DNA of 46,484 nucleotides from Polyangiaceae bacterium (GCA_033763455.1 JANRKO010000052.1:1-46484); one strand, 5' to 3'; numbered from the stretch's first letter, positions 1 through 46,484 are shown. The notes: generated by a model from the letters alone, not told the origin. A program made the numbers and translations.

Positions 1-397
1 GTAGAAATACTCTGCTTCGGCGCGCTCGTGAGCGAGGCGGGCGATCTCCGGATCTGAAGAGAGGTTTTTGAGCGTGTTGGCTGCGTCAGTCATCGAAGGT
101 TCCTCTTGTTCTAGCTCTTCTAGCTCCTGCCGGCTCTTCACTGAAAGAAAACGGGCACAAAGCCGCACTTTACGTTCGAAATCTGACTCGGGCTCCCCGA
201 CTGGCTTGCGCCGCGGGGCCAGGCCCAGTTGTAGCACATGCAGCGACAGCGCTTCGCTGTAGATTTCCCCACTTTTGTCTCCTCGGAGCCGAAACACCTC
301 GTGAAAACCGTACTCTGGGTGCGGCGCGCCCACCTGCCAGACCACACCGATCGACGGAGTGATCTCTTTGTACGGCATGCCTCGCGTCAGCTGGTTA
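1..397 (-). pseudogene. 5'-truncated Rpn-family / PD-(D/E)XK nuclease (PDDEXK_2-type) gene fragment, running off the window edge
   Basis: Manual translation: HNQLTRGMPYKEITPSIGVVW...FHEVFRLRGDKSGEIYSEALSLHVLQL...MTDAANTLKNLSSDPEIARLAHERAEAEYFY. Matches the QLxRGxxYxxLxPxI...FHxxFxL...LxLHxxEL pattern. The N-terminal catalytic part is missing and the frame starts at the boundary of the 172-bp repeat. Confidence 0.7.
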
Positions 398-569
398 TGA
401 TGCTCCCTCGTGGGTGCGGAGAATCTACGGCCGCTAGCGCTTGCTTCGCGACGCGCTATCGAGGCCCTCTTGTCTGTGCTCGCGCGCGTTGTGCTTGCTC
501 GCACGTGGGTGCCCGGCGCGCTGCGCGCAGCCGAGGGACCTAACGGCTGGGGTGAGAATAGGGGGCGCT
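398..569. repeat. 172-bp structured non-coding repeat, copy 1 (upstream of Rpn gene)
   Basis: Aligns ungapped with 3649-3820 with 8 substitutions by manual count. Contains hairpins TAGCGC-TTGC-ttc-GCGA-c-GCGCTA and CGGCGCGC-tg-CGCGCAGCCG. Confidence 0.95.
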
Positions 570-650
570 GGGAAACGAGCGCTTATTCGCGGCCATTTTC
601 CACATGTTTCACTTGCACTCTGTTCGCCAAAAACGCTATACAAAGATGCT

Positions 651-1634
651 GTGGCCAACCATCACGACGTACTTGTCAAGGAAGCCTTCAGCTCCCTTGA
701 AGACGCCGCCGCCGAGTTCAAAGCCATATTGCCTGAAAGGCTCGTCCAGGCGCTCGACCTCAAGAAGCTCACATTGGTTCCCGGTTCTTTCCGCGACAAG
801 AAGCTCGCCGAAAGTCACACGGATATTCTCTACAGTGTTCCTCTCCGCGCTCGCTCGGCGCTCGTCTACGTGCTCTTCGAACATAAGAGCGACGCTGATC
901 GTTGGACAACCCTGCAGCTTCTCGGCTACATGCTGAACATCTGGGAACGCTTTCGAAAGGACAATCCCAACTCGACCCTGCTGCCGCCAATCATTCCGCT
1001 CGTCTTGCATCACAGCCGAGCCGGCTGGTCCCGCTCCACAAGCTTCAACTCTCTGTTCGATCCTGAGCTGCTCGCAATCCCCGGCGTGACCGAGGGGCTC
1101 CCCAACTTTCATTTTCATCTCGACGACATCAGCCATATTTCGGAAGCTGACCTCCGCGCCCGTGCGTTCAGCGCATTCTCCACCTTGGCTTTGGCTAGCC
1201 TCAGTCGCTCCCGCGCAGGCTCGGAAGACGCCTTTCTCCAAGCCCTGGCCCCGCTCGCCGACCTCTTTGCCCAGCTCCTTTCGGCTGCAGATGGGCCCCG
1301 TGCACTCCGCATCCTCTTCGAGTATATTTCCCGGGTCGCCCCAGGTGTTTCACCCCAGGATTTGGAACGCTATTTAGCCGCAAAATCTCCAGAAGTGCAG
1401 GATCTCGCCATGACCATCGCTGAACAGATCAAACAGGAAGGCCTTGTACAAGGCCGTGTCGAAGGCCGCGTGGAAGGCCAAGCATTAAGCGTGCTAAAGC
1501 AGCTCAAGCTCAAGTTCGGGCCAGTGCCAAGCACCACCGAAAGCGCGATTCTCGCCGCCTCACCAGAGAGGCTCGATCTCTACCTTGAACGTATCCTCAC
1601 GGCCCAGTCCATCGACGATGTGATCAAAAGTTAG
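651..1634 (+). CDS. Rpn/YhgA-like recombination-promoting nuclease (Transposase_31 family), copy 1
   Basis: HDxLVK N-terminus, SF...TDILYSV...YVLFEHKS (PD-(D/E)XK), LPPIIPLVLHH, and C-terminal MTIAEQ..EGxxxG repeats. GTG start at 651 chosen by alignment to copy 2. Confidence 0.92.
   Translation: MANHHDVLVKEAFSSLEDAAAEFKAILPERLVQALDLKKLTLVPGSFRDKKLAESHTDILYSVPLRARSALVYVLFEHKSDADRWTTLQLLGYMLNIWERFRKDNPNSTLLPPIIPLVLHHSRAGWSRSTSFNSLFDPELLAIPGVTEGLPNFHFHLDDISHISEADLRARAFSAFSTLALASLSRSRAGSEDAFLQALAPLADLFAQLLSAADGPRALRILFEYISRVAPGVSPQDLERYLAAKSPEVQDLAMTIAEQIKQEGLVQGRVEGRVEGQALSVLKQLKLKFGPVPSTTESAILAASPERLDLYLERILTAQSIDDVIKS
1410..1634 (+). CDS. Putative internally initiated RpnS (intragenic antitoxin) of Rpn copy 1
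   Basis: In-frame ATG (MTIAEQIKQEG) preceded by SD-like GCAGGA; the same arrangement is kept in copy 2. Confidence 0.55.
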   Translation: MTIAEQIKQEGLVQGRVEGRVEGQALSVLKQLKLKFGPVPSTTESAILAASPERLDLYLERILTAQSIDDVIKS

Positions 1635-1653
1635 CTTGAATTTGTGACATCAG

Positions 1654-1714
1654 GCCTAATTGATCGTTGAAGCAGCCGGCCGATGCGGCCGCTGCTTAAC
1701 GTGGGGCAGTAGGG
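1654..1714 (+). other. attC-like recombination site 1 (61 bp; R' degenerate)
   Basis: GCCTAAT-tgatc-GTTGAAGC-agccggccgatgcggccgct-GCTTAAC-gtggggc-AGTAGGG gives R''/5 nt/8-nt L''/stem/7-nt L'/7 nt/R', with two unpaired bases in the stem. Confidence 0.65.
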
Positions 1715-2310
1715 CGGCGCGAACCCCGAGGGGCATTGGTAATCGAAATAATCTTGATCTCATAGGTGCCGCAAGCCGCGTCCCTGCAACGTCCGGCAGC
1801 CCAAATTTCGCCGTCTCCAAGCATTATCCCCTGAGTGTTGGCGAAAATCGTATCGACCGTCGCTGTTCGAATCACCTCGCTCACCAACGGTCCGAACAGT
1901 GAGTCAAAGCTGGACACTAGCTCTTGCTCACTCATAACGTTAACCCGACGCCCATTTGCCCAAGCATTCAGCGGAAAGGCAACCAAGGACGCCACTGCCT
2001 GCTTGTTGCGCTGGGAAATCGCAGCCTTCAGTCTTCGGAGAAACAGTTCAACATCTTCCCGCTTGAGCCCCGCGTATTTAACCTCAGCTGGACTTCTTTC
2101 GACGGTTCCCTCTTTGACGTCCAGGTGATCGGGCATTCCTGGTGGACCACCGTCTATGTCGCGGGTTGAGGTCTCCGCATGCTTCGCGCCGGTATCAGCC
2201 GTAACAGGTCCTGAACGCCGGTCTCGACCTTGGCATGCGCAATAATGCGCTGAGTAGAACATCAAGAGCATCATCAGCCCCAGCCGGCCCCCTTTAGTAC
2301 GATCCACCAT
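1696..2310 (-). CDS. Putative exported/lipoprotein immunity protein for the RHS lysozyme toxin
   Basis: Overlaps the 3' end of the toxin frame. Hydrophobic N-terminus with Cys, then a compact domain (…VASLVAFPL…GIMLGDGEIW…C…C…IKIISI). Stop codon lies in the attC-like site. Confidence 0.6.
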   Translation of the reverse strand: MVDRTKGGRLGLMMLLMFYSAHYCACQGRDRRSGPVTADTGAKHAETSTRDIDGGPPGMPDHLDVKEGTVERSPAEVKYAGLKREDVELFLRRLKAAISQRNKQAVASLVAFPLNAWANGRRVNVMSEQELVSSFDSLFGPLVSEVIRTATVDTIFANTQGIMLGDGEIWAAGRCRDAACGTYEIKIISITNAPRGSRRPTAPR

Positions 2311-3648
2311 TGAACACCGCCGCCTCTCTAGCACGCCTGAAGACTAGCCCTTGATTCACCTGCCCGCCTGCTTTGTTATAGAGGGCGAACGAAGCGGCCG
2401 CTTGTTGGTAGTTTCCGGCATTCAGGTTCTGAAGCACTGCTGACTTCGCGAAAGCGCCCGTGCCAATGTTGTATGCCAAGCTAGTAAGAGCATCAAACTG
2501 GCGCTGAGTCACGGGAACCTTCACCAGGCTACTAACAGCCTGCGAACGCGGTTGGAGATCATTCATGAAGATTTCCTTGGCGCGTGCGTGGCTGATCCCG
2601 GCCTGAAATTCGGCGGATTCGGTTCCATCGATCGGTCCGTGGTGTACGAGGTGCCCATAGCCAATCGTCGCGTGGTTCGCAGAATCGTTGTACAACTGTG
2701 ACCGGAAGCCCTCGAATCCTGCGATCATGTCGGCCCCTGCCGAACTGATCTGCCGCGAGGCGGCAGGGCGCGGGGCGCTTGCGCCACCACCTCTGCTCGC
2801 CAGCCTTGCGTCCCCATATTGTTCGTCCAGCGCGCTGCGAAACGCCTTCAGGTTCGCGTCGATCTCAGCAGCCCACGCTGCACCCTCGCTCAACGCCTGC
2901 CTTATTGAGGCGTCGGGTGCGTCCCCCTCCTGCGCCTTCGCCTTCCCCGCCCCTGGCGGAACCTTCTCCGCCTGCCCCGAAGACTCAATCACTTTGTATG
3001 CAGCCCCAACCCCCACACTCACCGCGCTACTGAACCCCCCTGTCCCCGCAGCCATCCCCAACCCCTTCGCCGACATCTTCTGCCCAGTCGCGACAGAAAC
3101 AGCAACATAGCGCGCGGCACTCCCCACTGCGCCCAGGCCAATGGAGGTCGCGGCTGTCGGGTTTGTGCCGCCCATCGCTGATACTCCCCCGCTCACCCCG
3201 CCACTTAAGGCACCCGTGGCCAAACCCTTCGCTGATATCGATTCCCCGTGCAGTATGGAATTGGCCGCATTGCCGACCATACCGCTGGCAGCGCCCGCCA
3301 TCACACCGCTCCCGAGAACGCTTCCCACACCACCGGTAATGGCCCCCACCGCCGCAGATATTGCTACCTCTTTCCAGTCTACTGTGCCGTTGACCGCAAG
3401 CTGGGTCACCGTGCTCACCACCGCCCCGACGATGGCGCCGATGGCCATCTGCGCGAAGTTGCCGTCTGGATCGACCCCCATGAGGGGTGACCCATGCACG
3501 TACGCATACGGGTTAGCGTCGCCCTGTAGGTCATGGATCGTCACCGCATCGGGACTCATCCACCGTCCCAGCGCTGTCGAGTAATACCGGGCTCCGAAGT
3601 ACGAGAGGCCAACCTCGATATCCTCCTCTTTCCCTGTGAACTTATTTT
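2294..3648 (-). pseudogene. Orphan RHS C-terminal module: end of RHS core + Gly/Ala-rich segment + GH24 (phage-type) lysozyme toxin
   Basis: In-frame KFTGKEEDIEVGLSYFGARYYSTALGRWMSPD...NPYAYVHGSPLMGVDPDG (RHS core end, DPxG). C-terminal FEGFRSQLYNDSANHATIGYGH is an E-x8-D-x5-T triad, followed by QFDALTSLAYNIG and GLVFRRARE. Truncated at the 172-bp repeat; an ATG at 3559 could still give a 421-aa product. Confidence 0.88.
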
Positions 3649-3820
3649 TGATGCTCCCTCGTGGTTGCGGAGAATCTACAGCCGCTAGCGCTTGCTTCGC
3701 GGCGCGCTACCGAGGCCCTCTTGTCTGTGCTCGCGCGCGTTATGCTTGCTCGCACGCGGCTGCCCGGCGCGCTCCGCGCAGCCGAGGGACCTAACGGCTG
3801 GGGTGAGAATAGGGGGCGCT
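3649..3820. repeat. 172-bp structured non-coding repeat, copy 2
   Basis: About 95% identical to 398-569. Confidence 0.95.
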
Positions 3821-3898
3821 CGAACCCCCCTTTCGCTATCATTTTGCCTACATTCCCGCTTGCGTTCTGTTCTCCAATAGCGCTATGGAGAACGCGCT

Positions 3899-4870
3899 GT
3901 GGCCAAACATCACGACGTGCTCGTCAAGGAAGCCTTCAGCTCTCTTGAAGACGCCGCGGCTGAATTCAAAGCCATATTGCCTGAGCATCTCGTCAACGCG
4001 CTCGACCTCAAGAAGCTCACCTTGGTTCCAGGTTCCTTTCGCAAGAAGGAGCTTGCCGAGAGCCACACAGATATCCTCTACAGCGTTCCGCTTGGCGCGC
4101 GCTCCGCGCTCGTCTATGTACTTTTCGAACACAAGAGCGACGCTGATCGTTGGACAAACCTCCAGCTTCTCGGCTACATGGTAGACATTTGGGAAAACTT
4201 TCGAAAGAACAACCCGGGCGCCACGCTACTGCCGCCCATCATTCCGCTCGTCTTGCATCACAGCCTTGCCGGTTGGTCCCGCTCGACAAGCTTCAGCACC
4301 CTGTTCGATCCTGAGCTGCTCGCAATCCCCGGCGTGAGCGAGGGGCTCCCCAACTTTCACTTTCACCTCGACGACATCAGCGACATTTCTGAAGCCGAGC
4401 TCCGCGCTCGAGCGCTCAGCACATTTTCTACGCTCGCGTTGGCCAGCCTCAGTCGCTCCCGCAGGGGCTCGGAAACCGCCTTTCTCGACGCTTTGGCCCC
4501 GCTCGCCGACCTCTTCGTCCAGCTCCTCTCAGCCCCAAACGGTCCCCGTGCACTCCGCATCCTCTTCGAGTATATTTCCCGAGTCGCCCCAGGTGTTTCA
4601 CCCCAGGACCTGGAACGCTACTTGTCCGAAAAAAATCCCCAAGTGCAGGACCTCGCCATGACTATCGCTGAACAGCTCAAACAGGAAGGCATCGCGCAAG
4701 GCATCCTGCGAGGGCAAGCCTTGAGCCTTCTGAAGCAGCTCAAACTCAAGTTCGGACCGGTGCCAAGCACTACCGAAAGCGCGATTCTCGCTGCCTCCCC
4801 CGAGCAGCTCGATCTCTACCTTGAACGTATTCTCACGGCCCAGTCAATTGACGATGTGGTCCGGAGTTAG
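3899..4870 (+). CDS. Rpn/YhgA-like nuclease, copy 2
   Basis: Close paralog of 651-1634 with the same motifs (TDILYSV, FEHKS, MTIAEQ). Confidence 0.92.
   Translation: MAKHHDVLVKEAFSSLEDAAAEFKAILPEHLVNALDLKKLTLVPGSFRKKELAESHTDILYSVPLGARSALVYVLFEHKSDADRWTNLQLLGYMVDIWENFRKNNPGATLLPPIIPLVLHHSLAGWSRSTSFSTLFDPELLAIPGVSEGLPNFHFHLDDISDISEAELRARALSTFSTLALASLSRSRRGSETAFLDALAPLADLFVQLLSAPNGPRALRILFEYISRVAPGVSPQDLERYLSEKNPQVQDLAMTIAEQLKQEGIAQGILRGQALSLLKQLKLKFGPVPSTTESAILAASPEQLDLYLERILTAQSIDDVVRS
4658..4870 (+). CDS. Putative internally initiated RpnS of Rpn copy 2
   Basis: GCAGGA-cctcgcc-ATG in frame (MTIAEQLKQEG). Confidence 0.55.
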   Translation: MTIAEQLKQEGIAQGILRGQALSLLKQLKLKFGPVPSTTESAILAASPEQLDLYLERILTAQSIDDVVRS

Positions 4871-4895
4871 CTTGACGTGCAAGCCAGACATTCAG

Positions 4896-4956
4896 GCCTA
4901 ATGGATCGTTGAAGCAGCCGGCCGATGCGGCCGCTGCTTAACGTGGTGTATTAGGG
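4896..4956 (+). other. attC-like recombination site 2 (61 bp, AAT/ATT cores)
   Basis: GCCTAAT-ggatc-GTTGAAGC-agccggccgatgcggccgct-GCTTAAC-gtggtgt-ATTAGGG; R'' and R' are nearly complementary. Confidence 0.72.
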
Positions 4957-5597
4957 GAAGCCACCTTCGCGTTGATCGCCATCCACGGGCGAGCGTGCAT
5001 CCGCCATCCCCGAATTAGCAAACCGCAGCCACCGAACACGAACAAGAGGTCGATGTGATAGCCGCCCAGATTTAGGAAAATCGACAGGTAGATTGGAAAC
5101 GTGCGCAACCCACCCAGTAGACCCAATCCAATAAGCAACGCGCCCCCCACCATGGTTCCCTTCGCACGCCGACGCACGGCTTTGCCTGCTGCTAGTGCGA
5201 GTGCCAAGTCGCCTGCCGCAAGGTCGAACCCGCATTCACATCTGACTTGCACCGCGGGAGCGACTTGACCGCAGAGTCCACAAGTCTGCAGGGGACCAAG
5301 TCTGCCCGTTGCTAGCGCTCGAAGAGCAGGGTCAGAATCGTTCTCGGCGATGACCCGAAGCAACGTTTGATTGCGCAAGACACGAACCGCTGCTTCGCGA
5401 ACCTGGGTGCGCGCGTGAGAGCGAATATGATCGTCGGCAAAGAGGCGCTCTGCGGCGATCTCACGCACGTCGGGCGGTGCCTTGCTCTCCAGAATGAGCT
5501 CCAATGTGCCTCGGTCCGTGATACTTGCAATTGTGTCAGCCCGAACAACCGGGTTGGAGTGACGCCACTTCGGACGAAATGAATCTACAAATGACAT
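4938..5597 (-). CDS. Hypothetical membrane protein (N-terminal helical/HEAT-like repeats, Cys zinc ribbon, 2 TM)
   Basis: PKWRHSNPVVRA.../VREIAAERL/VREAAVRVL/LRALATGRL repeats, CGLCG..RCECG, two hydrophobic segments. Stop codon lies within attC-like site 2. Confidence 0.7.
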   Translation of the reverse strand: MSFVDSFRPKWRHSNPVVRADTIASITDRGTLELILESKAPPDVREIAAERLFADDHIRSHARTQVREAAVRVLRNQTLLRVIAENDSDPALRALATGRLGPLQTCGLCGQVAPAVQVRCECGFDLAAGDLALALAAGKAVRRRAKGTMVGGALLIGLGLLGGLRTFPIYLSIFLNLGGYHIDLLFVFGGCGLLIRGWRMHARPWMAINAKVASPNTPR

Positions 5598-5682
5598 CGC
5601 TGAGGCTTAGCCCAATTCCCAGGCCCGAAACCTTTATATCAAGCAATGAAGTACCCGCTCCCAGGTCCCCATAGCCCAACTT

Positions 5683-6018
5683 CTAGCCTTGAACTCGTGG
5701 GGCAGCTTCACCAATCCGCGTCCCACACTTCGCGCAGCGACTCCCGAGGTATGCCCTAGGGAGTCCTAGGAACAAGTCGTCCTCCCATCGGCGGGTTGAC
5801 CAAAAGGTGGCCCGACACTTGGGGCATCGAAAATTGGTAACGAAAGCGTGACCCAAGGCCATCATCGCCATGGCTGCCAGCAGGAACGGCCAGCGATACG
5901 GCGAACCTTGTCTGGTGAGGCTGTTTGCAGCAAAAAAGGAGAGGGCGCTCAGAAGTACCAACGCTCGCCAGCCCCGTAGGCGGCGCTTTGCCTGCACTGC
6001 ATTCTTGAGCTCGCTCAT
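5683..6018 (-). CDS. Small 2-TM protein with CxxC...CxxC, possible immunity protein
   Basis: Two TM segments then CPKC...CAKC; ATGA overlap with the upstream Gly-rich ORF. Confidence 0.6.
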   Translation of the reverse strand: MSELKNAVQAKRRLRGWRALVLLSALSFFAANSLTRQGSPYRWPFLLAAMAMMALGHAFVTNFRCPKCRATFWSTRRWEDDLFLGLPRAYLGSRCAKCGTRIGEAAPRVQG

Positions 6019-6347
6019 TGTATTGGGGTCGTGAACAAGTAGTCCAAAGGCACGGTCACTGTTGTCCCTACCACCCCACCCGCCCAGAGACCGGTCATTG
6101 GCCCAACGCCGACCTGCCCACTAAGTCCGCCCGCCGGCCCGGTAGTTCCCGTAAAACAGACTCCTGGTCCTTCGTATTTTACACCGTAACCAAGCCCGCC
6201 CAAGGTATCCAAACTACTGTAACCGCCTATGGCTGCTCCGGCTCCAAGGTACCCGCCCACGCCCGGGGTATAACTTGCGCTGCCAAGCGCGCCCACTCCG
6301 TCGAATCCCACGTAGACACCCGCGGATAGGTCTATCCCCCCACCCAA
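6015..6347 (-). pseudogene. Gly-rich hydrophobic fragment, probable polymorphic-toxin C-terminal remnant
   Basis: Gly-rich sequence without a convincing start/RBS, translationally coupled to a small TM gene. Confidence 0.4.
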
Positions 6348-6540
6348 GTAGCTGAGCCCGGATCGGAAGGCTGGGCTTCAGTGTCCTTCGGCTCCCGCAT
6401 TCCGCAAATGACATCCCTAAGCTATACTCTACTTCTGCCGGGTCCTGATCCTCCAGCTACTCCGAGAACACCCGAGGCTCCACCCATGGGCTGCACTACC
6501 TGGATAATTTGCGTATCTCCGCCGCAACACAGCGCTGCCC

Positions 6541-6645
6541 CAATCTGGTTACGTCACCATCAATGATGTTCGTGCTGCCGGATACTCTTCGGCGCTCCTC
6601 GAATACCACGTGCGTACCGGCCATCTGCAGCGCGTCATGCGCGGT
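6541..6645 (+). pseudogene. Fragment of AbiEi-type (type IV TA) antitoxin N-terminal wHTH
   Basis: Manual translation QSGYVTINDVRAAGYSSALLEYHVRTGHLQRVMRG matches the QxGYxT...GxS..L..HV..G.L.RV.RG pattern; no start codon and no C-terminal domain. Confidence 0.6.
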
Positions 6646-6925
6646 CAGCCCCCTCGCTCGACAAAGTCCTCACAGATTAACCTCTTCGAACTTTGCAACT
6701 GTGCGGCGGCCGAGAAACGCCGCCTCCACATCGACCACGAAAACCTCGATACTTCCGCCGACAACTAACTTTTCCATCCGCACACCTGATACACGGAAGT
6801 CCCACCCGTCTCTTTCGCACTCGAAACCTGGGATCCCCCGCGTCTACCCTGGCTTCGGGCGTCGCCTTCGCGTAGCTTTACGCCCACGCTCCGGCCGTAC
6901 CACCCCGGAGCCTTCAGGAGTCCTT

Positions 6926-8449
6926 ATGCGCGTTTCCTTCGCCCGATTTGGGTTTGCTTGTGCAATTGCCTTCACCGCATCTTCTGCTGCTGCCCTTTCC
7001 GGCACCACAGATCCACTTTTTATTCCGGCTAAAGATTGTTCGCTGCCTGGCGTCAACATGAACTGCGTGTTGTGGGAACCGGCCAATTATAACCCGGCGA
7101 CGAAATACCCGCTCATTGTGTACATGCATGGAGCAGGGCAATCGGGTTGGGACGCCAACCCCGCCTCCAATATGGAGAGGATAGAGAACACCAAGAATTT
7201 CGCTGCCATGCTCATGACCGTGGTGAGCGAAGAGATGGGGGTCACCAATGGCGAGTACCTGGTGATGATGCCGCAGGCGCCCGACTTTGAGACTACTCCT
7301 CCGAACGGCGGAGCCTACGTGCAATGGGACTGGGGCCAGCAGCAATCCTACTCGATGACAACCCTTGCGGAGAGCCCCACCATGCAGCGCGCGCGCGCCA
7401 TGATCGATCAGGTGCGGGGGACGCACAACGTAGACGCTGATCGTATCTACGCCATCGGAGTTTCTATGGGAGGTTTCGGTGCTTGGGATGCGGCCTCGCG
7501 CTACCCGGGGGTGTTTGCCGCAACTCTCCCGAGCGCAGGCGGTGGGTCACCGGATGCCGCTTCTCTGCTCAAGAACATGGCCATTTGGTCGCATCATAGC
7601 GATGCCGATGGCGCCGTACCCTCAAACAGCGATCGAGAAATGTTTCGCGCTGTCGCACTCGCTGGTGGGCGCCCTGTATACACAGAAACCATAAGCTCCG
7701 ATCACTCAGACGGAGGCGTTTCGAGCAATCCCAATTACCTCTCATGGATGTTAGCCCAACGTCGCGGAGTTCCAGCGACTTCCAATCCGGCGCTCGCCTT
7801 CGATCCGCCTGGCGGGGCACTTACATCGCCGGTAATGGTGACCATCTCGAGCGATCAAGGAAGCAACATCCGCTACACGCTTGACGGTACAGTGCCCTCT
7901 TCTTCAACGGGCATGGTGTACAATGGCCCCATTGCGCTCACGGATAGCGTGGTACTGATCGCCATGGTGGAGGGCGGCGGGGAAAGAGTCTTTCACGCGG
8001 CGCCGTTTCAGGTTGACGGCAAGCCGCTGCCTGCCGGAGCCGAACTTGTCAATGGCACACCCCCTCCCCTTCCTCCGGTAACGGGATCCGGGGGCTCGAA
8101 TAGCGGTCCAACAAGCGGGGGCGGAGGCACACCGAACGTCCCCAATCCCGCGAGCGGCGGAGCTTTTAACGCGAGCGGCGGCGCGGCGAGTGCCAGTGGC
8201 GGCTCTTCCGCCAATCCTTTCCCGTCTTCAACCGGAACCGCATCGGCTCCTGTCCCCAGCGGGACCACACCTGTCCCCGGCTCCACCCCCGCACCTGCCG
8301 GCGGCACAACCGCGCCCAAGGCTTCAAGGGGCGAGGCAAAGTCCGGCTGCGCGCTACACAGTTCGGGGCAAGGCGGAGAGGGCACACTCGCTATCTTCGG
8401 CTTAGTGCTCGGCGGCCTCGCTCTCTCTAGGCGCAAACGCTCCTTTTGA
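6926..8449 (+). CDS. Secreted alpha/beta-hydrolase (esterase/peptidase) with Fn3-associated domain, Pro/Gly/Ser linker and MYXO-CTERM
   Basis: AGGAG RBS then signal peptide; YPLIVYMHGAG; GVSMGG nucleophile elbow; IRYTLDGTVP; C-terminal SGCA...TM...RRKR. Confidence 0.85.
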   Translation: MRVSFARFGFACAIAFTASSAAALSGTTDPLFIPAKDCSLPGVNMNCVLWEPANYNPATKYPLIVYMHGAGQSGWDANPASNMERIENTKNFAAMLMTVVSEEMGVTNGEYLVMMPQAPDFETTPPNGGAYVQWDWGQQQSYSMTTLAESPTMQRARAMIDQVRGTHNVDADRIYAIGVSMGGFGAWDAASRYPGVFAATLPSAGGGSPDAASLLKNMAIWSHHSDADGAVPSNSDREMFRAVALAGGRPVYTETISSDHSDGGVSSNPNYLSWMLAQRRGVPATSNPALAFDPPGGALTSPVMVTISSDQGSNIRYTLDGTVPSSSTGMVYNGPIALTDSVVLIAMVEGGGERVFHAAPFQVDGKPLPAGAELVNGTPPPLPPVTGSGGSNSGPTSGGGGTPNVPNPASGGAFNASGGAASASGGSSANPFPSSTGTASAPVPSGTTPVPGSTPAPAGGTTAPKASRGEAKSGCALHSSGQGGEGTLAIFGLVLGGLALSRRKRSF

Positions 8450-8649
8450 GCGCTAGACACCTAAGCGCAAAGACGACGGTCTCAAAGATCCACACGGTGT
8501 GGGCAGCATGCAGGGCACCCCTCCGCGCTGCTCCTGAGGTACTTAGCATGCGAAGAGTTGCCTCAACCGCTGGAAAGGCAGCTCGGCCCCACCGTGAGCC
8601 CATAACTGCTTCCCTTCCCCTCGCCTAGGGCTCTAGCCTTGCGCGCCGC

Positions 8650-9183
8650 ATGAAATACTTCGTCTCCGTCGACGGCACCGAGTTCGCTGTAGACATCACG
8701 TCGAACCCGGATGGCTCGCTCAGCGGATCCCTGTGTGAGCCCTCCACCGCCGCGGATGGCTCGCTCCGTGTCTTTCCTCGCGTGCAAGTGGCACAGATTC
8801 AAGGCGGTTCGGTGGTGCACGTGGGCAACCGGCCCATGGAGGTGTTTCTCGAACCCGCACGGAATGGCCTCCGAAATGCGATCGTCGCGGGCTTTCGAGC
8901 TCCAACTACCATTCAGAGTGAGCGCGATCGCCAGCTTTTGGTGGGTAATCGGCAGGGGCGGTCGGGAACAGGTTGGCTCCGAAGTCCGATGCCTGGCCGC
9001 ATCATCAAGGTCACGGCCAAGGTAGGTGAACGAGTGGAGCGCGGGAGCGCCCTCGTGATTGTGGAGGCAATGAAAATGCAAAATGAGCTATTTGCGGAAC
9101 ATGCTGGCGTAGTGGGCGAAGTGCGAGTTTCCGCTGGCGATACGGTGGAACGCGACGCCGATTTGGTGCGGATCGACGCATGA
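8650..9183 (+). CDS. Biotin/lipoyl carrier protein (acyl-CoA carboxylase biotin-carrier subunit)
   Basis: SPMPGRI...IVEAMKMQNEL. Confidence 0.9.
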   Translation: MKYFVSVDGTEFAVDITSNPDGSLSGSLCEPSTAADGSLRVFPRVQVAQIQGGSVVHVGNRPMEVFLEPARNGLRNAIVAGFRAPTTIQSERDRQLLVGNRQGRSGTGWLRSPMPGRIIKVTAKVGERVERGSALVIVEAMKMQNELFAEHAGVVGEVRVSAGDTVERDADLVRIDA

Positions 9184-10169
9184 TCAATAAGCTTAGCTTC
9201 GCGCATCTGCCGACGCCTCTCTGGCACCACGATGCCCTGGATAGGCTCGTTGGGGCGGAAATTTGGGTCAAACGCGACGACATGACCTCGGGGGCCCAAG
9301 CTGGCAACAAGATCCGAAAGCTCGAATATTTGCTGGCAGATGCTCTCAGAAAGCGCTCCACTGCCGTGATAACCTGTGGGGGCCTCCAATCCAATCATGC
9401 TCGTGCTACGGCTCTTTTGTGCGCCCAGCTTGGCCTAGAATGCCATCTCTTTTTACGAACCAGCGCGCCTTCCGAACCACTACCGGCTACTGGCAACGTG
9501 CTACTCGATCGAATGGCGGGCGCAAAAGTTCACCTCATCACGAGCGCGCAGTATCAAGAACGCTCATCGCTGATGGCAGCTCTAGAGGCCAAGCTCCGCG
9601 CGCAAGGTACGGCGGCGTACGTGATCCCAGAAGGTGGCTCCAATGGGCTCGGCGCTTTCGGCTACGTCGAGGCCATCGCCGAAATCCGCCAACAGTTAGA
9701 CGCCGGCTTGGGCCCAGGGCGGGGTGCGGAATTCGACGCCGTGGTGCACGCGTGCGGTTCGGGTGGCACTGCCGCCGGAGTAGCGCTCGGTATTGGAAAA
9801 TGGGGAGTAGCGAGGCGTGCCATTGCCTTCGCTGTGTGCGACGACATTCGCTACTTCTCTGAGCAGATCGCTGCGATCATCCAAGATGCGCGTGGTCGTG
9901 AGCCGAGTTTGCCGGAACCGGGCCGCTGGTCCGTAGAGGATGCTTGGAAGGGTCCAGCGTATGGGATCGCAAGCGATGAGCAAAAGAGCTTCATCGTTGA
10001 GGTTTGCCGGAAAACAGGGCTCGTGTTGGATCCGGTCTACACGGGCAAAGCGCTGTTCGGCCTTTCTCGGCTGGAGCCAAAGCCCAATCGAGCGCTATTT
10101 CTGCACACGGGGGGCTTGCCTGGCCTTCTGGCAGAAGGCGAAACGTTCGAGGCCGCGTTAGCTCGTTAG
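9180..10169 (+). CDS. dcyD: D-cysteine desulfhydrase family PLP enzyme
   Basis: KRDD, GNKIRKLEY, QSNHAR, PEGGS; DPVYTGK and HTGG carry Thr rather than the ACC-deaminase E/L residues. Confidence 0.8.
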   Translation: MINKLSFAHLPTPLWHHDALDRLVGAEIWVKRDDMTSGAQAGNKIRKLEYLLADALRKRSTAVITCGGLQSNHARATALLCAQLGLECHLFLRTSAPSEPLPATGNVLLDRMAGAKVHLITSAQYQERSSLMAALEAKLRAQGTAAYVIPEGGSNGLGAFGYVEAIAEIRQQLDAGLGPGRGAEFDAVVHACGSGGTAAGVALGIGKWGVARRAIAFAVCDDIRYFSEQIAAIIQDARGREPSLPEPGRWSVEDAWKGPAYGIASDEQKSFIVEVCRKTGLVLDPVYTGKALFGLSRLEPKPNRALFLHTGGLPGLLAEGETFEAALAR

Positions 10170-10196
10170 CTCGTTAGCTCGTTAGCTCGCTAGCTC
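10157..10196. repeat. Tandem 8-bp repeat (GTTAGCTC)x4 + GCTAGCTC
   Basis: Read directly; spans the dcyD stop codon. Confidence 0.95.
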
Positions 10197-10208
10197 CTTT
10201 TGCAGGTT

Positions 10209-12422
10209 TCAATCTTCTTTGCGAATGAGCGGAACCTCTCGCAAACGCTTCTTGAACGCTTTGAAGCGCCCTAGCGCCTTCTCTTTAACTTCGGGGTTGG
10301 TAGACAGATCGTTCTTTTCGCCTGAATCTTTTGCAAGATCGTAAATGCCCAGCACCTTGCCATCGCTCATGATGACCTTCACGTCGTTCTCGATCAGCGC
10401 TTGTCGTTCCTCGTTGTAAGGGCCCGCACTCATGTCGATGAAGATGGGGCGCGCGGAAAGCTGGGGTAAAAAGAGCTCAGCCAGGAGCGACTGGCCGCTC
10501 ATAAAATCGCGATCTTTTCCGCTGGGTGCCGGGACATCCAAGAGGTCCAGCAAGGTGGGCGCTACGTCGATGATGGAACGGCGCTCCTTTACCCGGCGCG
10601 GAGCAACGCCCGGCACATAGAGCAGAAGCGGAACGCGCACGAGCTCTTCCCACACCTCGTACCCATGCCGATACATCCCGTGTTCACCGAACGCTTCGCC
10701 ATGATCGCTCGTGAACACGATCGCGGTGTTTTTCATCAGACCGCTTGCTTCTAGGTAATCGAGGAGGCGCCCGATCTGTTGGTCTACGAAGGCCACCTCG
10801 CCGTCGTAACGTTCACGGCCTTTGTGCCCAAAATCAAATTGGCGATGCGGCACATATTCGGCATGGGGATCCACGTAGTGCACCCACATGTAGAAAGGCT
10901 GCGCCGTATTTTTCGGGTCTTTTAAGACCTCAAGAGCATTGTCGGTGAGCTCATCCCCATTAGAGGTTTGGTCGCCCTCAATGATGTGTTTGGTGGGTGC
11001 CGCGCGCTTATCGATCTGATCAAAGCCGCGTTCGAAGCCGTAGCCGGCCTCATGAAAGTACCAATAGGCTTGCACGCTCAGAGTGCGGATCTTGCCTTGG
11101 ATACGCTCGGGCACGAAGCGATCGAGCGGTCCAAACTTGTTGAAGTGTCGAAAGCCGATATCCGTTTCGCTCCCGTATTTACCGATCAACATTGGCGACA
11201 AGCTCTTGCTTGTATAGCTAGCCAAGGAATACGCGTTTTCGTATATTACGGCTTTTTTCGCGAGTTTATCCAAATTGGGGGAGACATTGCGCGCGTATCC
11301 GAGGTAACCCAAGTTGGCGCGGAGTGTATCCACCGTGATAACGATTACGTTTAAGCCTTTGGGGATTTGTGGGGGGTGCGCAATGTGCGGCACTGCCGGC
11401 ACCGTAGAGGGCGCTTCTACGCTTTTCTCGGCATCTCGCCCTGAGCAATCTTCATCAATGTGGTTTCCCTCAAGGTCGTCCGCCGTTGGATTCATTCGCG
11501 GATCTTGATCGTTGCAATCCCCCCCCCCGAACCACGCGCTAAATCCGTCAGCATCACGATCCGTGAGTTTACGCAACGGCGCCAACGTCAGCTTGGTGAG
11601 CGGCGCATGGCGTTCGAGCGCACGCACCGTGCCGGCGTCGGAAAACGCCGCACTGGCGCTCCCTACAAAAACACCGAGAGCTAGAAGCGGGGTCACCACT
11701 AAGAGCCCTGCGGCCATCCGAGCTACCCCTGGAAGCACCACCACATAAGCTGCCACTCCCATCATTGCCAACAACCCCACGGCCCTCAAATCGAGCTCTT
11801 GTCGGCGAAAAACGCCCAAAGCTTGGTAGCTCGGCCCCTGTCCGCTCGTGGTGCCGATAAATACGAACAGGAGCACACCAGCCACCAAGCCGGCTGCTGC
11901 TAAACCCCAACTTCGCACAACGTTGGGAGCCGTTAACCTTGATTTACCAAGAATCTGCGCCAAAGCCACCCCCACCGCACCTAGCGTGAAGGTGGCGACG
12001 ATAGCAGAAAAGCTCAAAGCCACTCCTGCGCTCCGCGCAACGCTCTCGGTTCCGAGCAGCCGAGTACTGAGCGTTGCGCCCAACACCCATGCTAGCAACA
12101 AAAGCACCGCCGCAACCGAGCCAAGCCTTGCGTACAGGGCGCGCTTTTCAACGGAAAGGGTTTCGAGCCAAGCCCGAAGATGTGCCAATGGCCCCCGTGC
12201 ACCATGCACAAACAACGACGCAAAAAGCACCAACAGCGAAACTCCGAGCCCCATGAACGCGTGGATCCCCACCTGGGCATGAAACGCCGCAAGCCAGGCT
12301 CCCGTTTGAGCGGCCACCCAACGTGCCTCCCAAGCCGCGGCCGCCACGCTCGAAAGAAGGCCCACAGTAAAGACATTGGCTGCGCGCGCGACCCAAGTTG
12401 CGCTGTTCGGCTGGGAACTCAT
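10209..12422 (-). CDS. Multi-TM sulfatase-like hydrolase/transferase with MopE-type Cys/Asp metal-binding repeat
   Basis: N-terminal TMs; DADG..GGDCND..NP..E..IDEDCSG; NVIVITVDTLRA; HYVDPH; TSDHGEAFGEHG; VPLL. Confidence 0.85.
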   Translation of the reverse strand: MSSQPNSATWVARAANVFTVGLLSSVAAAAWEARWVAAQTGAWLAAFHAQVGIHAFMGLGVSLLVLFASLFVHGARGPLAHLRAWLETLSVEKRALYARLGSVAAVLLLLAWVLGATLSTRLLGTESVARSAGVALSFSAIVATFTLGAVGVALAQILGKSRLTAPNVVRSWGLAAAGLVAGVLLFVFIGTTSGQGPSYQALGVFRRQELDLRAVGLLAMMGVAAYVVVLPGVARMAAGLLVVTPLLALGVFVGSASAAFSDAGTVRALERHAPLTKLTLAPLRKLTDRDADGFSAWFGGGDCNDQDPRMNPTADDLEGNHIDEDCSGRDAEKSVEAPSTVPAVPHIAHPPQIPKGLNVIVITVDTLRANLGYLGYARNVSPNLDKLAKKAVIYENAYSLASYTSKSLSPMLIGKYGSETDIGFRHFNKFGPLDRFVPERIQGKIRTLSVQAYWYFHEAGYGFERGFDQIDKRAAPTKHIIEGDQTSNGDELTDNALEVLKDPKNTAQPFYMWVHYVDPHAEYVPHRQFDFGHKGRERYDGEVAFVDQQIGRLLDYLEASGLMKNTAIVFTSDHGEAFGEHGMYRHGYEVWEELVRVPLLLYVPGVAPRRVKERRSIIDVAPTLLDLLDVPAPSGKDRDFMSGQSLLAELFLPQLSARPIFIDMSAGPYNEERQALIENDVKVIMSDGKVLGIYDLAKDSGEKNDLSTNPEVKEKALGRFKAFKKRLREVPLIRKED

Positions 12423-12444
12423 AGTCCCTCGTGCATACGCCGGA

Positions 12445-13428
12445 TCAGGGCTTTTCGGGAGGCTCTATTGGCGCCGGGGCGGCCGCTCGGCGCGACAGGG
12501 GGTGGCTCTTGTCGTAGACGGCGAAGAGCTGATCCAGCGAAAGATGCGTGTAGCGCTGGGTCGTGGAAAGGCTGGTGTGGCCGAGCATTTCCTGGATCGA
12601 ACGCAAATCCGCGCCACCTTCCAGCAAGTGCGTTGCGAAGGAATGCCGCAGGGCATGCGGGTGCAAATCTGGCCGAGCCGCCCCAAGAGCGCCGTAACGC
12701 CGGGTAAAATATTGGATGGCGCGCACCGTCATGCGCGCACCCCGCTGATTCAACAAGAGCGCCGTGGGATGCTGCATCCCAGTCTTCGGATGCACGAGCT
12801 CCGATCGGAGCGGCAAGTAGTCGTTGAGCACAGCGAGCGCCTGGGTGCCCAAAGGAACCAACCGCTCTTTGTTCCCCTTTCCCACTACGCGGATAAGCCC
12901 AGTTTGGCGATCCACATCACCCACATCCAAGCTGCCCAATTCGCTCACACGCAGGCCCGAGCCATAGAGCAGCTCCAGCGCCAAAGCATCGCGCAGCTTC
13001 ACTGCGGACTTCGATAGTGGCTGCAAGAGGGGTGATTCCATCACCTCAGAGGCGCCATGTGGGCTAAGAAATGCGGGCATTTTGCGGCGCACTTTGGGGC
13101 TCGCCAAGAGCGTCGTGGGATTTTTCACGACGAGGCGCTGGCGTTCCAAAAAAGAAAAGAATGCACGCACCGCGGCTAACTTGCGTCCCAAGGTGGCCGG
13201 CACTACGCGCTCAGCTAGATCGCCCAGCCAAGCTCGCAACACTAAGCGGTCCACATCTACGGGAGTGGTGATGTTCGGGAAGCGCTCCTCCAGAAAGGTA
13301 AGTAACTGGTCAAGATCGCGCCGGTAAGCGTTCACGGTGTTCGCAGGCGAACGGCGCACCTCTACGAGCGAAGCAACAAACTCAGCCAGGGCACGACGCA
13401 GCGCTGTGTCCGCGCCAGAGGTCGTCAT
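12445..13428 (-). CDS. xerC: Tyrosine recombinase XerC/XerD
   Basis: SANTVNAYRRDL-like N-domain, LLYGSGLRVSEL, GKGNKER, HPHALRHSFATHLLEGGADLRSIQEMLGH..LSTTQRYTH. Confidence 0.88.
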   Translation of the reverse strand: MTTSGADTALRRALAEFVASLVEVRRSPANTVNAYRRDLDQLLTFLEERFPNITTPVDVDRLVLRAWLGDLAERVVPATLGRKLAAVRAFFSFLERQRLVVKNPTTLLASPKVRRKMPAFLSPHGASEVMESPLLQPLSKSAVKLRDALALELLYGSGLRVSELGSLDVGDVDRQTGLIRVVGKGNKERLVPLGTQALAVLNDYLPLRSELVHPKTGMQHPTALLLNQRGARMTVRAIQYFTRRYGALGAARPDLHPHALRHSFATHLLEGGADLRSIQEMLGHTSLSTTQRYTHLSLDQLFAVYDKSHPLSRRAAAPAPIEPPEKP

Positions 13429-46256: not shown

Positions 46257-46484
46257 TCCCCGCGAGCTCAAAGCCAGCAGTTCCTCCCAGCATCACCTCA
46301 ATTTCTCCTCCCACACTCCGACTTTCTGAGCTAGAAGGCCCCCCTCATGTGCGTCACGAAGCTGCAGCTGACCAGCGGGTGCCGGCCTGGAGACGATCCG
46401 GGTCGAAGTCTCGTCAGCGGAAATACCGAAAGGTCGTTGTATCGAGTCTTGCGTCTTGCATCGCGAGGTGCCGGGCGAAGCGTA

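Follow-up and report, generated by a model that had tools for sequence, protein, structure and literature searches.

Sites of the attC type carry boxes of the consensus RYYYAAC/GTTRRRY, a complete integron joins an intI gene to an adjacent attI and a cassette array, and attC sites without an integrase are usually grouped into a CALIN by a 4 kb spacing rule. As reported in PMC2811028, AAC/GTT are the only conserved nucleotides of attC and attI, and IntI1 requires the first nucleotide to be identical in both partner sites; in its IntI1 assays, a changed first nucleotide keeps full activity if both partners carry it. Defence and toxin-antitoxin (TA) systems are described among integron and CALIN cassettes (bioRxiv 10.1101/2024.07.02.601686); its main text makes no mention of 'Rpn'. 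A full-text literature search for Rpn defence genes as integron cassettes returned nothing related, judging by titles and the openings of abstracts.

Rpn proteins are described as promoting RecA-independent recombination (PMC5350276), and the rpn genes of E. coli as having no defined ends and not being autonomously mobile (PMC10400941). The repeats in these proteins are reported to lie 8-20 residues past the start of the intragenic antitoxin RpnS (PMC10400941; PMC5350276).

We analysed a 46,484-nt stretch of DNA from a Polyangiaceae bacterium (JANRKO010000052.1, the window), whose left end holds two rpn genes among unrelated genes on the opposite strand. Our preferred reading, to which we give a probability of roughly 0.55, is that of an integrase-less cluster of attC-type cassettes inside an orphan RHS array.

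Two Rpn units in an accessory island

The first 6.5 kb of the window (1-6.5 kb) form the right half of an island of ~12 kb. This region is accessory: in a related metagenome-assembled genome, G201, the island is missing at the syntenic place, where the DNA ending at position 15001 of contig C36 is joined across ~450 nt to window position 7032 onwards. The backbone shared with this relative restarts at 6887-7032. G201 has one unit elsewhere, with 83% identity as against 68-76% for the backbone.

Units A (398-1714) and B (3649-4956) consist of four collinear direct-repeat blocks spaced 3236-3251 nt apart. In a pairwise alignment, the likeness sets in abruptly at 398/3649 and stops within a few bases of 1714/4956; a stretch at 570-650/3821-3898 is weakly kept, and a single 12-nt indel falls within the gene. 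A blastn search of the genome with unit A recovered unit B over 1326 columns at 84.5% identity. The alignment confirms the two sharply bounded units of the sequence-only reading, with an upstream element 95%, an Rpn gene ~85% and a 3' site 94% identical, and the minus-strand genes between and beside them are, as it had stated, mutually unrelated.

Features of the island's right end, in window coordinates
Feature	Position	Strand	Remarks
Repeat block 1	395-569/3646-3820		175 nt, 95% identity
Repeat block 2	648-947/3896-4195		86% identity
Repeat block 3	1462-1639/4698-4875		85% identity
Repeat block 4	1650-1714/4892-4956		65 nt, 94% identity
Truncated second Rpn-like gene, PDDEXK_2 type	1..504	-	5'-truncated; cut off at left end of repeat A
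Upstream repeat A	398..569	+	non-coding; first 70 nt a dispersed repeat with conserved hairpin
Spacer	570..650	+	poorly conserved; weak -35/-10-like hexamers, read by eye, directly 5' of GTG start
rpn copy A	651..1634	+	327 aa; PD-(D/E)XK nuclease, C-terminal RpnS-like part, internal Met, two GRVE repeats
attC-type site A	1654..1715	+	short class; A-T crossover pair; 1R box degenerate, AGT; R1 25.1 bits, full length
212-aa ORF, presumed immunity gene	1696..2334	-	downstream of toxin tip; stop inside site A
Orphan RHS C-terminal module	2294..3643	-	~60 residues of RHS core, Gly-rich linker, lysozyme-family tip
Upstream repeat B	3649..3820	+	abuts RHS core remnant
rpn copy B	3899..4870	+	323 aa; without GRVE repeat
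attC-type site B	4896..4956	+	short class; R1 26.3 bits, full length
219-aa ORF	4938..5597	-	stop is the same TAA inside site B
Two small ORFs	5683..6347	-	111 aa with Cys pairs (by eye); 110 aa, Gly-rich; right end of island

Further copies of the unit, with different neighbours and different cargo, were found elsewhere, as had been predicted. On contig C36, a VapBC-like pair is bracketed by the same upstream repeat and 3' site, and the unit ends are conserved across genomes with differing flanks. Within the genome the ends appear homogenised: upstream repeats A and B differ at 9 of 173 positions, and A differs from the G201 copy at 31. For the rpn genes, dS is 0.51 inside this genome and 0.54 across genomes. 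We considered a recent duplication of the two rpn genes and ruled it out, since a dS of 0.51 implies no recent copying and marks them as old paralogues. No inverted repeat joining the unit ends was detected by the repeat search, and no target-site duplication was found at the flanks of eight upstream-repeat copies; the unit thus lacks the terminal inverted repeats and target-site duplication of an insertion sequence or transposon.

Both rpn copies are members of PF04754 (Transposase_31, YhgA-like; 145.9 bits for A and 141.3 for B, cut-off 21). Copy A also matches DUF4351 at 18.8 bits, under the cut-off of 25, and the NCBIfam RpnA and Rpn models under their cut-offs; a comparison with solved structures by sequence gave no match. 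Read from the translation, D58, E77 and K79 are probably the PD-(D/E)XK residues. In the predicted RpnS part, the four-residue repeat is present 2, 0, 0, 3 and 3 times among five close homologues, always in 12-nt steps (GRVE twice in A and not at all in B; GREE-GRVE-GIVQ at metagenome locus L054). The strong PF04754 match and the purifying selection on the two copies (dN/dS 0.15) recall the known Rpn toxins with intragenic antitoxin (PMC10400941; PMC5350276), as does the internal Met, which lies 13 residues ahead of the varying repeats and fits the reported 8-20. Unlike the E. coli rpn genes as described in PMC10400941, these have both ends defined, and the 3' end is attC-like. The proteins may act against phages. 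The truncated gene at the left end runs on into contig C36 or C14, a 63-nt overlap being identical to the ends of both, on which its KAEG four-residue repeats number 5 (C36) and 2 (C14); its residues 36-164 match profile positions 94-218 of 229 in PF12784 at 22.4 bits, under the cut-off of 27.4.

The upstream repeat, for which the copy at C36:19188-19357 is 92% identical to A, lacks codon periodicity, and its frames are interrupted by indels. The sequence-only reading called it a leader. It is not an integron feature: its first 70 nt are one member of a dispersed hairpin repeat, of which model R3 finds 11 copies in this genome, often adjoining RHS core remnants, and the hairpin shows compensatory changes. 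Six further places (two on C2, one each on C33, C62, C73 and C89) have these 70 nt without any Rpn gene. The repeat is real, but it lies upstream of the only promoter-like hexamers seen by eye and so need not belong to the Rpn transcript. Because a consensus scan of positions 300-5100 returned 0 promoter-like sites, we can only infer a promoter within the spacer.

The RHS module between the units matches TIGR03696 (Rhs_assc_core) at 62.8 bits (cut-off 32.5) over residues 1-61, and its tip matches PF00959 (Phage_lysozyme; 131.8 bits). The module's reading frame opens where the repeat ends, at their junction, and the module combines, like an orphan RHS, a core fragment without the repeat shell and a variable tip. 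The 212-aa ORF has no Pfam or NCBIfam match, and its position after the RHS-CT suggests an immunity function; the 219-aa ORF has no family match in Pfam or NCBIfam either, and the two small ORFs yielded sub-threshold zinc-ribbon hints only. The arrangement is that of orphan rhs toxin/immunity arrays: on the minus strand, a short RHS core piece (TIGR03696) leads into a variable tip, with a small ORF downstream. A classical locus of a main rhs gene plus orphans lies on contig C38 of the same genome. Unlike in such arrays, the assembly contains neither a main rhs gene whose core matches (best match 36%) nor any matching full-length rhs gene; an inverted Rpn or VapBC gene, together with its attC-type site, stands between one orphan and the next; and the core remnants end at the fixed end of the upstream repeat, which they meet at four different truncation points. 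The region had been read as alternating cassettes. This is not its anatomy, because none of the RHS toxin-tip/immunity modules has an attC itself.

The 3' sites and their crossover triplet

The 3' sites were compared with a home-made covariance model, R1, built solely from the eight true attC sites of the genome's own integron (contig C15) and so representing one attC family (effective sequence number 1.37). The window sites match it with E-values of 2e-4 to 6e-4, which are valid for 75-89 kb and borderline genome-wide. Four of five related copies elsewhere also match, at 22.7-41.4 bits; full-length plus-strand scores are 41.4 on C71, 29.1 on C38, 28.0 at L034 in a relative, 22.7 on C14 and 21.6 at the metagenome loci L054/L056. 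The exception is the C36 copy, whose 13.4 bits are within the noise. All other matches stayed at or below 16.7 bits in four filter-off searches covering ~235 kb in total. In a genome-wide run, in which 150 of 1377 candidates were scored, the short sites were absent from the list; both AAC and GTT were found in 16 of the 22 R1 hits, and AAT/ATT in 0.

The alignment to R1 is in register throughout: a 1L box, a 5-nt spacer, a GTT(G) 2L box with an extrahelical G, a 2R box ending in AAC, a 7-nt spacer and a 1R box. The bottom-strand fold of site B (z-score -6.0) has the layout of the true attC at C15:10545-10632: in both, an asymmetric loop separates the outer stem from an inner stem that bears two single-base bulges. 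Site A has a DNA fold z-score of -3.2 to -3.6, and the tail z-scores of the site folds range from -3.2 to -7.0. The short sites thus show the imperfect inner inverted repeat, extrahelical bases, asymmetric spacer (a loop of 6/4 nt between outer and inner stem) and terminal loop of an attC. Across eight short sites, 88.3% of cells pair, as against 25-49% in slid controls; five pairs have changed on both sides, a number reached by 2 of 500 shuffles, and the outer stem covaries as well. The 61-nt site therefore folds as claimed, and model, fold and covariation together uphold its likeness to attC. The short sites are homologous to integron attC in sequence layout and fold.

The crossover triplet is where they depart from it. 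In all eight short sites, which come from two genomes and one metagenome contig, 1L closes with T and 1R opens with A, so that an A-T pair on both arms replaces the G-C pair of the canonical AAC/GTT crossover that the genome's canonical sites carry. The 1L box is GCCTAAT (ending in CAT on C14) and the 1R box ATTAGGN (beginning with AGT in site A); in the set of six short sites compared with the R1 hits of the genome, 1L ends in T in all and 1R starts with ATT in five. The other box positions fit the consensus, giving 5-6 of 7. Since A stands in place of G at the triplet in all eight, we treat the short sites as a separate class; they measure 61-63 nt, and the genome's own canonical attC sites 79-90 nt. 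The change recalls the engineered attC and attI sites with an altered first GTT nucleotide described in PMC2811028: here too the first nucleotide and its pairing partner have changed together, the arrangement that retained full activity if both partner sites had it. The engineered sites are laboratory mutants used with IntI1; those described here would be a natural, putative site family beside a canonical array.

Integrase, movement and competing explanations

A true integron integrase is encoded in the genome, as had been anticipated, on contig C15 (TIGR02249, 427.7 bits; cut-off 265), together with an array of canonical attC sites; this contig is syntenic with G201 at backbone identity. In the window itself, in agreement with the sequence-only reading, no protein exceeds the TIGR02249 cut-off. 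Its only tyrosine recombinase (12445-13428) is XerC/D-like and lies in conserved backbone (best model XerC, 298 bits; cut-off 335). The window does not show the intI, adjacent attI and cassette array of a complete integron. The sites at C36:20246 and window 1654 and 4896, which share the plus strand, are separated by ~2.0 and 3.2 kb and have no integrase nearby, constitute a CALIN, a call that depends on the C36-C52 join and on R1 hits counting as attC.

Like CALINs, the locus has several attC-type sites in a single orientation without a nearby intI, and its cargo is toxin/antitoxin- or defence-like, seemingly with its own promoter. As in integron arrays, sites within the genome are more alike than their cargo, and a complete integron is present elsewhere in the same genome. 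Unlike integron and CALIN cassettes, it has a short site class with A-T, not G-C, at the crossover, intervals of 2-3 kb between sites that hold genes in both orientations, orphan RHS modules among them, and a second conserved non-coding element 5' of each cargo gene. No attC adjoins the upstream repeats on their left, which leaves the 5' end of the unit without a site; a 'cassette' defined by the 3' sites alone would measure 2-3 kb and contain genes of both orientations. The integron reading is thus supported in part: by attC likeness, additional copies, the integrase elsewhere and the island, and not by alternation, leader, crossover pair or observed movement.

As to the last, the sequence-only reading spoke of a recombinase-shuffled array. 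Four sequencing runs, which gave short low-depth contigs, showed no excision or shuffling event: no joints, circles or deletion forms were seen. One contig from another sample carries the final 297 nt of unit B with 0 differences and departs at 4958, just past the site. At three metagenome loci (L055, L057 and L059), the site of a close Rpn gene is kept no further than its first box, beyond which the sequence diverges, the L057 gene being nearly identical to that of L054 (dS 0.012). This divergence point is not the place expected for integrase-mediated exchange.

We favour a cluster of attC-type cassettes within an orphan RHS array, made of three kinds of parts: minus-strand modules of an orphan RHS tip and a presumed immunity gene, plus-strand TA-type genes, and the 172-nt upstream element. 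The plus-strand genes, two Rpn here and the VapBC-like pair on the adjoining contig, would be self-contained, each ending in a 61-63-nt site. The bottom-strand fold of these sites may be, or may have been, the substrate of an integron integrase acting in trans, for which the IntI on C15 is a candidate. If two such sites recombined, the intervening DNA would be released as a circle, which would be reinserted at another site of the same class. Given that IntI1 needs the same first nucleotide in both partners (PMC2811028), the A-T short sites would recombine with one another and only inefficiently with the main array, as a private exchange group.

Somewhat unlikely, in our judgement, is that the sites are fossils, descended from attC and no longer recombined, the G-to-A crossover change being inactivating, and homologous recombination, gene conversion and RHS-type C-terminal displacement being the sole ways in which the island still changes. 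The triplet, non-canonical throughout the eight sites and AGT in site A, fits such decay, as do the loss of 9-11 nt of one arm at L054/L056, the retention of the first box only at L055/L057/L059, the lack of joints in the four low-depth runs and the age of the Rpn copies (dS 0.51); RHS core remnants of four lengths at a fixed repeat end are what illegitimate or deletion events would give. Drift after inactivation, however, should break pairing, and both arms retain the A-T pair in all eight sites while five other pairs covary. The sites have also diverged by 6% as against a dS of 0.51 in the adjoining gene, and IntI1 is reported to regain full activity when both partners share the changed first nucleotide (PMC2811028).

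We consider improbable a mobile or homing unit run by Rpn, the alternative named in the sequence-only reading, in which the upstream repeat and 3' hairpin are ends acting in cis, Rpn moves the module by break-induced recombination and the VapBC copy is a non-autonomous derivative. It would account for two sharp ends that are kept across genomes with different flanks, enclose non-Rpn cargo as well and are homogenised within the genome, and for left flanks consisting of genes truncated at various points against a fixed end; Rpn proteins are, moreover, reported to promote RecA-independent recombination (PMC5350276). Against it, neither terminal inverted repeats nor target duplications were found, the first 70 nt of the upstream repeat occur at the six Rpn-free places, three other full-length Rpn paralogues (C23, C33, C76) lack the short attC-type site, E. 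coli rpn genes are reported without defined ends or autonomous mobility (PMC10400941), and attC better explains the 3' end.

It is very hard to credit that the 3' element is a GC-rich, terminator-like hairpin resembling attC by chance and the units plain ancient duplications: the hairpin sits between convergent ORFs, GC-rich DNA folds well and the window sites score a modest 25-26 bits, but no T-run follows the stem, terminator-like sites are not commoner than in shuffles, all boxes and both spacers are in register with true attC on one strand only, seven loci score 21.6-41.4 bits over a background of at most 16.7, and the outer stem covaries too.

Meaning for Rpn genes and integron specificity

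The presence of Rpn genes with integron-type sites among spare toxin tips, in a variable island, hints at how such genes move. A bolder extension of the cassette-cluster interpretation, which we regard as unlikely, is that one integrase serves two orthogonal integron circuits, the canonical GTT array and a private network of ATT-class sites and hairpin repeats that shuffles Rpn, VapBC and RHS tips between islands and related species. If true, this would be a natural case of a changed target specificity that has so far been made only by mutagenesis, and it would provide a concrete vehicle for the mobility of rpn genes.

Two Rpn units in an accessory island

The sequence-only reading had described two copies of one Rpn unit with sharp bounds and minus-strand genes between them, and a repeat search, an alignment and profile searches confirmed this. 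In window 1-9000 we found four collinear direct-repeat blocks spaced by 3236-3251 nt, and in the pairwise alignment the similarity between units A and B begins abruptly at 398/3649 and ends abruptly near 1714/4956. Between the upstream repeat and the gene, 570-650/3821-3898 is weakly conserved; the gene itself carries one 12-nt indel. Both products match PF04754 (Rpn/YhgA-like; 145.9 bits for copy A and 141.3 bits for copy B, cut-off 21), and the C-terminus of both weakly resembles DUF4351 (18.8-18.9 bits, under the cut-off of 25). Between the units lie a minus-strand ORF of 212 aa (1696-2334), for which a family search gave no match, and an RHS orphan, a toxin-tip module headed by an RHS core remnant, whose C-terminal end belongs to the lysozyme family (PF00959, 131.8 bits). 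A second Rpn-like gene, of the PDDEXK_2 type and truncated at its 5' end, lies to the left of unit A; it covers only profile positions 94-218 at 22.4 bits, below the cut-off of 27.4. An Rfam scan of window 1-7000 (E up to 5) and a tRNA/tmRNA scan of the whole window returned no matches; in consensus scans there were no promoter-like sites, and terminator-like sites did not exceed their frequency in shuffles. The 10-nt palindrome ATAGC GCTAT (3875-3884), immediately before rpn copy B, overlaps a -10-like hexamer. It recurs just upstream of a decayed remnant on contig C36, is imperfect in copy A and at locus L034 of the related MAG G201, and could be an operator.

Repeat blocks of the window, further copies in the assembly (G000; blastn) and full-length matches of the attC covariance model R1; C numbers are G000 contigs
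Feature	Position	Strand	Length	Identity, score or note
Repeat block 1	395-569/3646-3820		175 nt	95%
Repeat block 2	648-947/3896-4195			86%
Repeat block 3	1462-1639/4698-4875			85%
Repeat block 4	1650-1714/4892-4956		65 nt	94%
RHS orphan ORF	2294-3643	-		TIGR03696 core, residues 1-61, 62.8 bits (cut-off 32.5)
Upstream repeat, further copy	C36:19188-19357			92%
Upstream repeat, further copy	C87:61609-61776			75%
Upstream repeat, further copy	C48			partial
3' site, further copy	C36:20244-20304
3' site, further copy	C14:33028-33101
3' site, further copy	C71:694-755
R1 match	C71	+	full length	41.4 bits
R1 match, lone site	C38:41532-41594	+	full length	29.1 bits
R1 match	L034	+	full length	28.0 bits
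R1 match, site B	4896-4956	+	full length	26.3 bits
R1 match, site A	1654-1715	+	full length	25.1 bits
R1 match	C14	+	full length	22.7 bits
R1 match	L054/L056 (metagenome)	+	full length	21.6 bits

The window contig starts with the 63 nt in which both C36 and C14 end. In G201, which we reached via L034, the backbone matches the window from about 7033 on at 68-76% DNA identity. On contig C15 of G201, a match to C36:8481-15001 is followed, after about 450 nt, by a match to window 7032-8046; since G201 joins the two in this way, C36 and the window contig flank one locus. At the protein level the alignment of the flanking genes with G201 starts at residues 85 and 127. At this locus G201 lacks about 12 kb (11.8-12.7 kb) of G000, namely C36 from about 15.0-15.3 kb to its end and the window from 1 to about 6.5-7.0 kb, and the comparison argues that the region is an accessory island. 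A single complete unit is present at another place in G201 (L034 3744-5050), with 83% identity to each of A and B; it adjoins an AAA-ATPase gene, followed by a small minus-strand ORF and an RHS orphan whose N-terminal part has 87% DNA identity to the C36 orphan. In the decayed remnant at C36:16985-17158 (about 4990-5160 of locus L001), the promoter region and initial codons of Rpn run into a short piece from inside the gene and then into the 3' end of the PDDEXK_2-type gene; this shows that deletions occurred earlier inside the same island. At C38:133-10623 lies a classical rhs locus, in which a 2044-aa main gene precedes two orphan tips with a small ORF behind each; no Rpn gene was seen in it. 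At least 30 G000 contigs (for example window 46346-46484 and C36:1-140) end in a repeat of about 140 nt, with 95-100% identity between the copies seen; it is probably the terminus of an insertion sequence at which the assembly breaks.

The two rpn genes differ by a dS of 0.51 and a dN of 0.078 (dN/dS 0.15, Nei-Gojobori), and purifying selection acts on both. Each copy is about as distant from its homologues in G201 (dS 0.54-0.55) and in metagenomes (0.50-0.61) as from the other, so they are no recent duplication. Upstream repeat A has 9 differences from B in 173 aligned positions, against 13 from the C36 copy and 31 from the G201 copy. Being close within G000 and far in G201, the ends have therefore been homogenised within the genome, whereas the genes have not. 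The rpn copies also vary by whole four-residue repeats starting 13 residues past an internal Met: GRVE-GRVE in copy A, none in copy B and G201, and GREE-GRVE-GIVQ in two metagenome copies. The internal Met and the repeat variation match the hallmark of the RpnS antitoxin, repeats 8-20 residues past the RpnS start, as described in passages of PMC10400941. The truncated PDDEXK_2-type gene is repeat-variable too (KAEG five times on C36, twice on C14). A PDB sequence search with RpnA gave no match.

The 3' sites and the genome's own integron

The array was first seen without an integrase, which left open whether the genome holds an IntI; it does, at G000 C15:7145-8158 (TIGR02249, 427.7 bits, cut-off 265), followed by a cassette array with canonical sites such as GCCCAAC ... 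GTTGGGC. C15 is syntenic with G201 at backbone identity and thus belongs to this lineage. Its stretch 7145-13642 (locus L013) is a complete chromosomal integron, with intI, an attI-side junction near 8370-8390 and at least 8 attC sites; three near-identical 540-nt cassettes stand in tandem at 8335-9990. About 12 more attC-model matches lie at C1:708-6758, C16:499-919, C41:2567-6473 and C58:14717-14798.

Using eight attC sites of C15 only, to which RNAalifold gives a textbook attC fold with 5 covarying pairs, we built the covariance model R1 (effective sequence number 1.37). It was run with filters off over about 235 kb in total, including 48 kb around other Rpn/PDDEXK_2 paralogues. The 3' sites of the units, called attC-shaped from the sequence alone, passed with this home-made model: beyond the matches in the table and two canonical attC sites in G201, all scores in the 235 kb were at most 16.7 bits. 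The C36 copy reached just 13.4 bits, and nothing in the 48 kb around the paralogues exceeded 13.2 bits. E-values are rough and valid for the stretches searched; genome-wide, canonical sites alone were listed among the 150 of 1377 candidates scored. The lone C38 site (1033-1095 of locus L080) sits between succinate dehydrogenase genes and small accessory ORFs, and its R boxes resemble the canonical GTCCAAC/GTTGGAC of G000 except for T and A at the crossover pair.

Folded as single-stranded DNA, the bottom strand of site B has a 6-bp stem on the outside, then an asymmetric loop of 6/4 nt, and inside it a stem that carries two single-base bulges and ends in a 3-nt loop; the true attC at C15:10545-10632 has the same layout with a longer terminal part. 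Tail z-scores of the site folds range from -3.2 to -7.0. In the class of eight short sites (61-63 nt), 88.3% of cells pair, against 25-49% when the partner is slid by 1-3 columns, and five pairs have changed on both sides, a number matched by 2 of 500 shuffles. Four unrelated minus-strand ORFs to the right of four sites cross box 1R and share a TAA stop in box 2R (window 1696-1698 and 4938-4940, C71:765, L034:5053), in an identical frame ending ...PR or ...SR; a fifth such ORF, in the metagenome locus L054, uses a different frame.

The short sites differ from the canonical ones at the crossover. AAC with GTT occurs in 16 of the 22 R1 matches listed in G000 and AAT/ATT in none (150 of 1377 candidates scored). 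In the short sites of G000 the first box ends in T (6/6) and the last starts with ATT (5/6; AGT in site A), and the crossover pair is T-A in all eight, G201 and L054 included. For IntI1, passages of PMC2811028 report that changing the first GTT nucleotide in one partner lowers recombination 1000- to 10000-fold, and that the same change in both partners restores it fully. If this rule holds here, the short sites would exchange with one another and hardly with the main array. A model of the short sites (R2) gave five matches (25.7-28.6 bits) in 150 other genomes of the order; they have no R boxes and were rejected. As far as sampled, the class is narrow.

Other cargo and the upstream repeat

An array implied further copies with different neighbours, and blastn of G000 (92 contigs, 93.67% complete, 2.84% contamination) revealed them on C36, C14 and C71, besides the one at L034 of G201. 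On C36 an upstream repeat and a 3' site enclose a 76-aa ORF overlapping a PIN-domain ORF (PF01850 19.3 bits and TIGR00028 27.1 bits, both under their cut-offs); this cargo looks like a VapBC-type pair replacing Rpn. The C71 site is preceded by a more distant Rpn C-terminus and a DUF559 fragment. L054, a 97-kb microbial-mat contig, follows the same grammar as the window: an RHS remnant, an upstream repeat and a DUF559 gene come first, then an RHS orphan, a further upstream repeat, Rpn and the site.

The upstream repeat, originally taken as a leader within the integron cassette, did not hold up as such. Searches with nhmmer and with R3, a model of its first 70 nt, found 11 copies in G000, 1 and 4 weaker matches in two genomes of the same family, of which 23 were sampled, and isolated weak ones beyond. 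Its left end is fixed, a T-run and then TGCTCCC; beyond it lies either an RHS core remnant, truncated at one of four points (window B, C36, L054 copy 1, and L054 copy 2 with the metagenome loci L056 and L057), or another gene. RHS core fragments lie 190-260 nt from the C2 and C33 copies, and an RHS fragment stands within 300 nt on the left side in 4 of the 11 G000 copies. Given the dispersed copies and the RHS remnants beyond the fixed end, we conclude that the repeat is not an integron part. Its whole RNA fold is not distinctive (z-scores -0.95 and +0.13) and it matches no Rfam family; one hairpin alone is conserved over 13 copies, in which several pairs have changed in a compensatory way and the plus strand has G-T pairs. 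A coding reading was rejected, as differences are even over codon positions (e.g. 14/13/17) and indels break the frames. Between the repeat and the GTG start are weak hexamers and a variable spacer. A blastn-type search for the repeat in the order gave short GC-rich matches in 19 of 200 other genomes (at most 82 nt, E 8e-7 to 9e-4), taken as chance. On C87 a half copy (59734-59803) and the full copy flank a minus-strand gene for a 590-aa lipoprotein-like protein; the G201 counterpart of the full copy (C258) follows an orthologous nucleotidyltransferase-like gene, so C87 may hold the oldest copy. The final 50 nt of the upstream repeat (520-569 and 3771-3820), with ...CCTAAC and ATAGGGG on either side of a G-rich spacer, bear a loose resemblance to the right half of a short attC, and the attC model gave no match to them.

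Exchange and the mobility of rpn

Two features count against active integron-type exchange: the 5' side of the unit has no second site, and the pieces bounded by 3' sites alone would be 2-3 kb long with genes on both strands. Moreover, the close Rpn homologues of three metagenome loci (L055, L057 and L059) keep the first box GGCCTAAT plus 2 nt and then continue into a common unrelated sequence. Canonical integrase exchange would break the site at its other end, so this too argues against it; the rpn genes of L057 and L054 differ by a dS of 0.012. Contigs of four public runs, too short and shallow to bear on excision, contained no joints. In another study, a 397-nt contig matches the final 297 nt of unit B exactly and parts from the window sequence at 4958, immediately beyond the site, which weakly hints that the neighbour there differs.

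Most likely, the window holds part of a cluster of attC-type cassettes that lacks a local integrase and carries Rpn twice and a VapBC-like pair. These cassettes most likely form a class of their own, with an A-T crossover, and sit within an array of orphan RHS toxins on a variable island; their sites may be active, fossil or the substrate of another enzyme. Defence and toxin-antitoxin cassettes are described in integrons and CALINs in parts of 10.1101/2024.07.02.601686. A literature search confined to main texts found no published link between Rpn and integrons: "integron" occurs 0 times in PMC10400941 and "Rpn" 0 times in the main text of 10.1101/2024.07.02.601686. For E. coli, passages of PMC10400941 report horizontal transfer of rpn without defined ends and propose hitchhiking, whereas the rpn genes here have defined ends, the 3' one like an integron cassette site. 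Such ends offer a testable vehicle for rpn mobility. A natural class of attC sites whose crossover nucleotide has changed, alongside a canonical array, would mean that integron specificity can split within one genome, as laboratory work predicted to be possible (in passages of PMC2811028). Finally, the interleaving of Rpn with orphan RHS modules would link two variable weapon stores, one anti-phage and one anti-bacterial.
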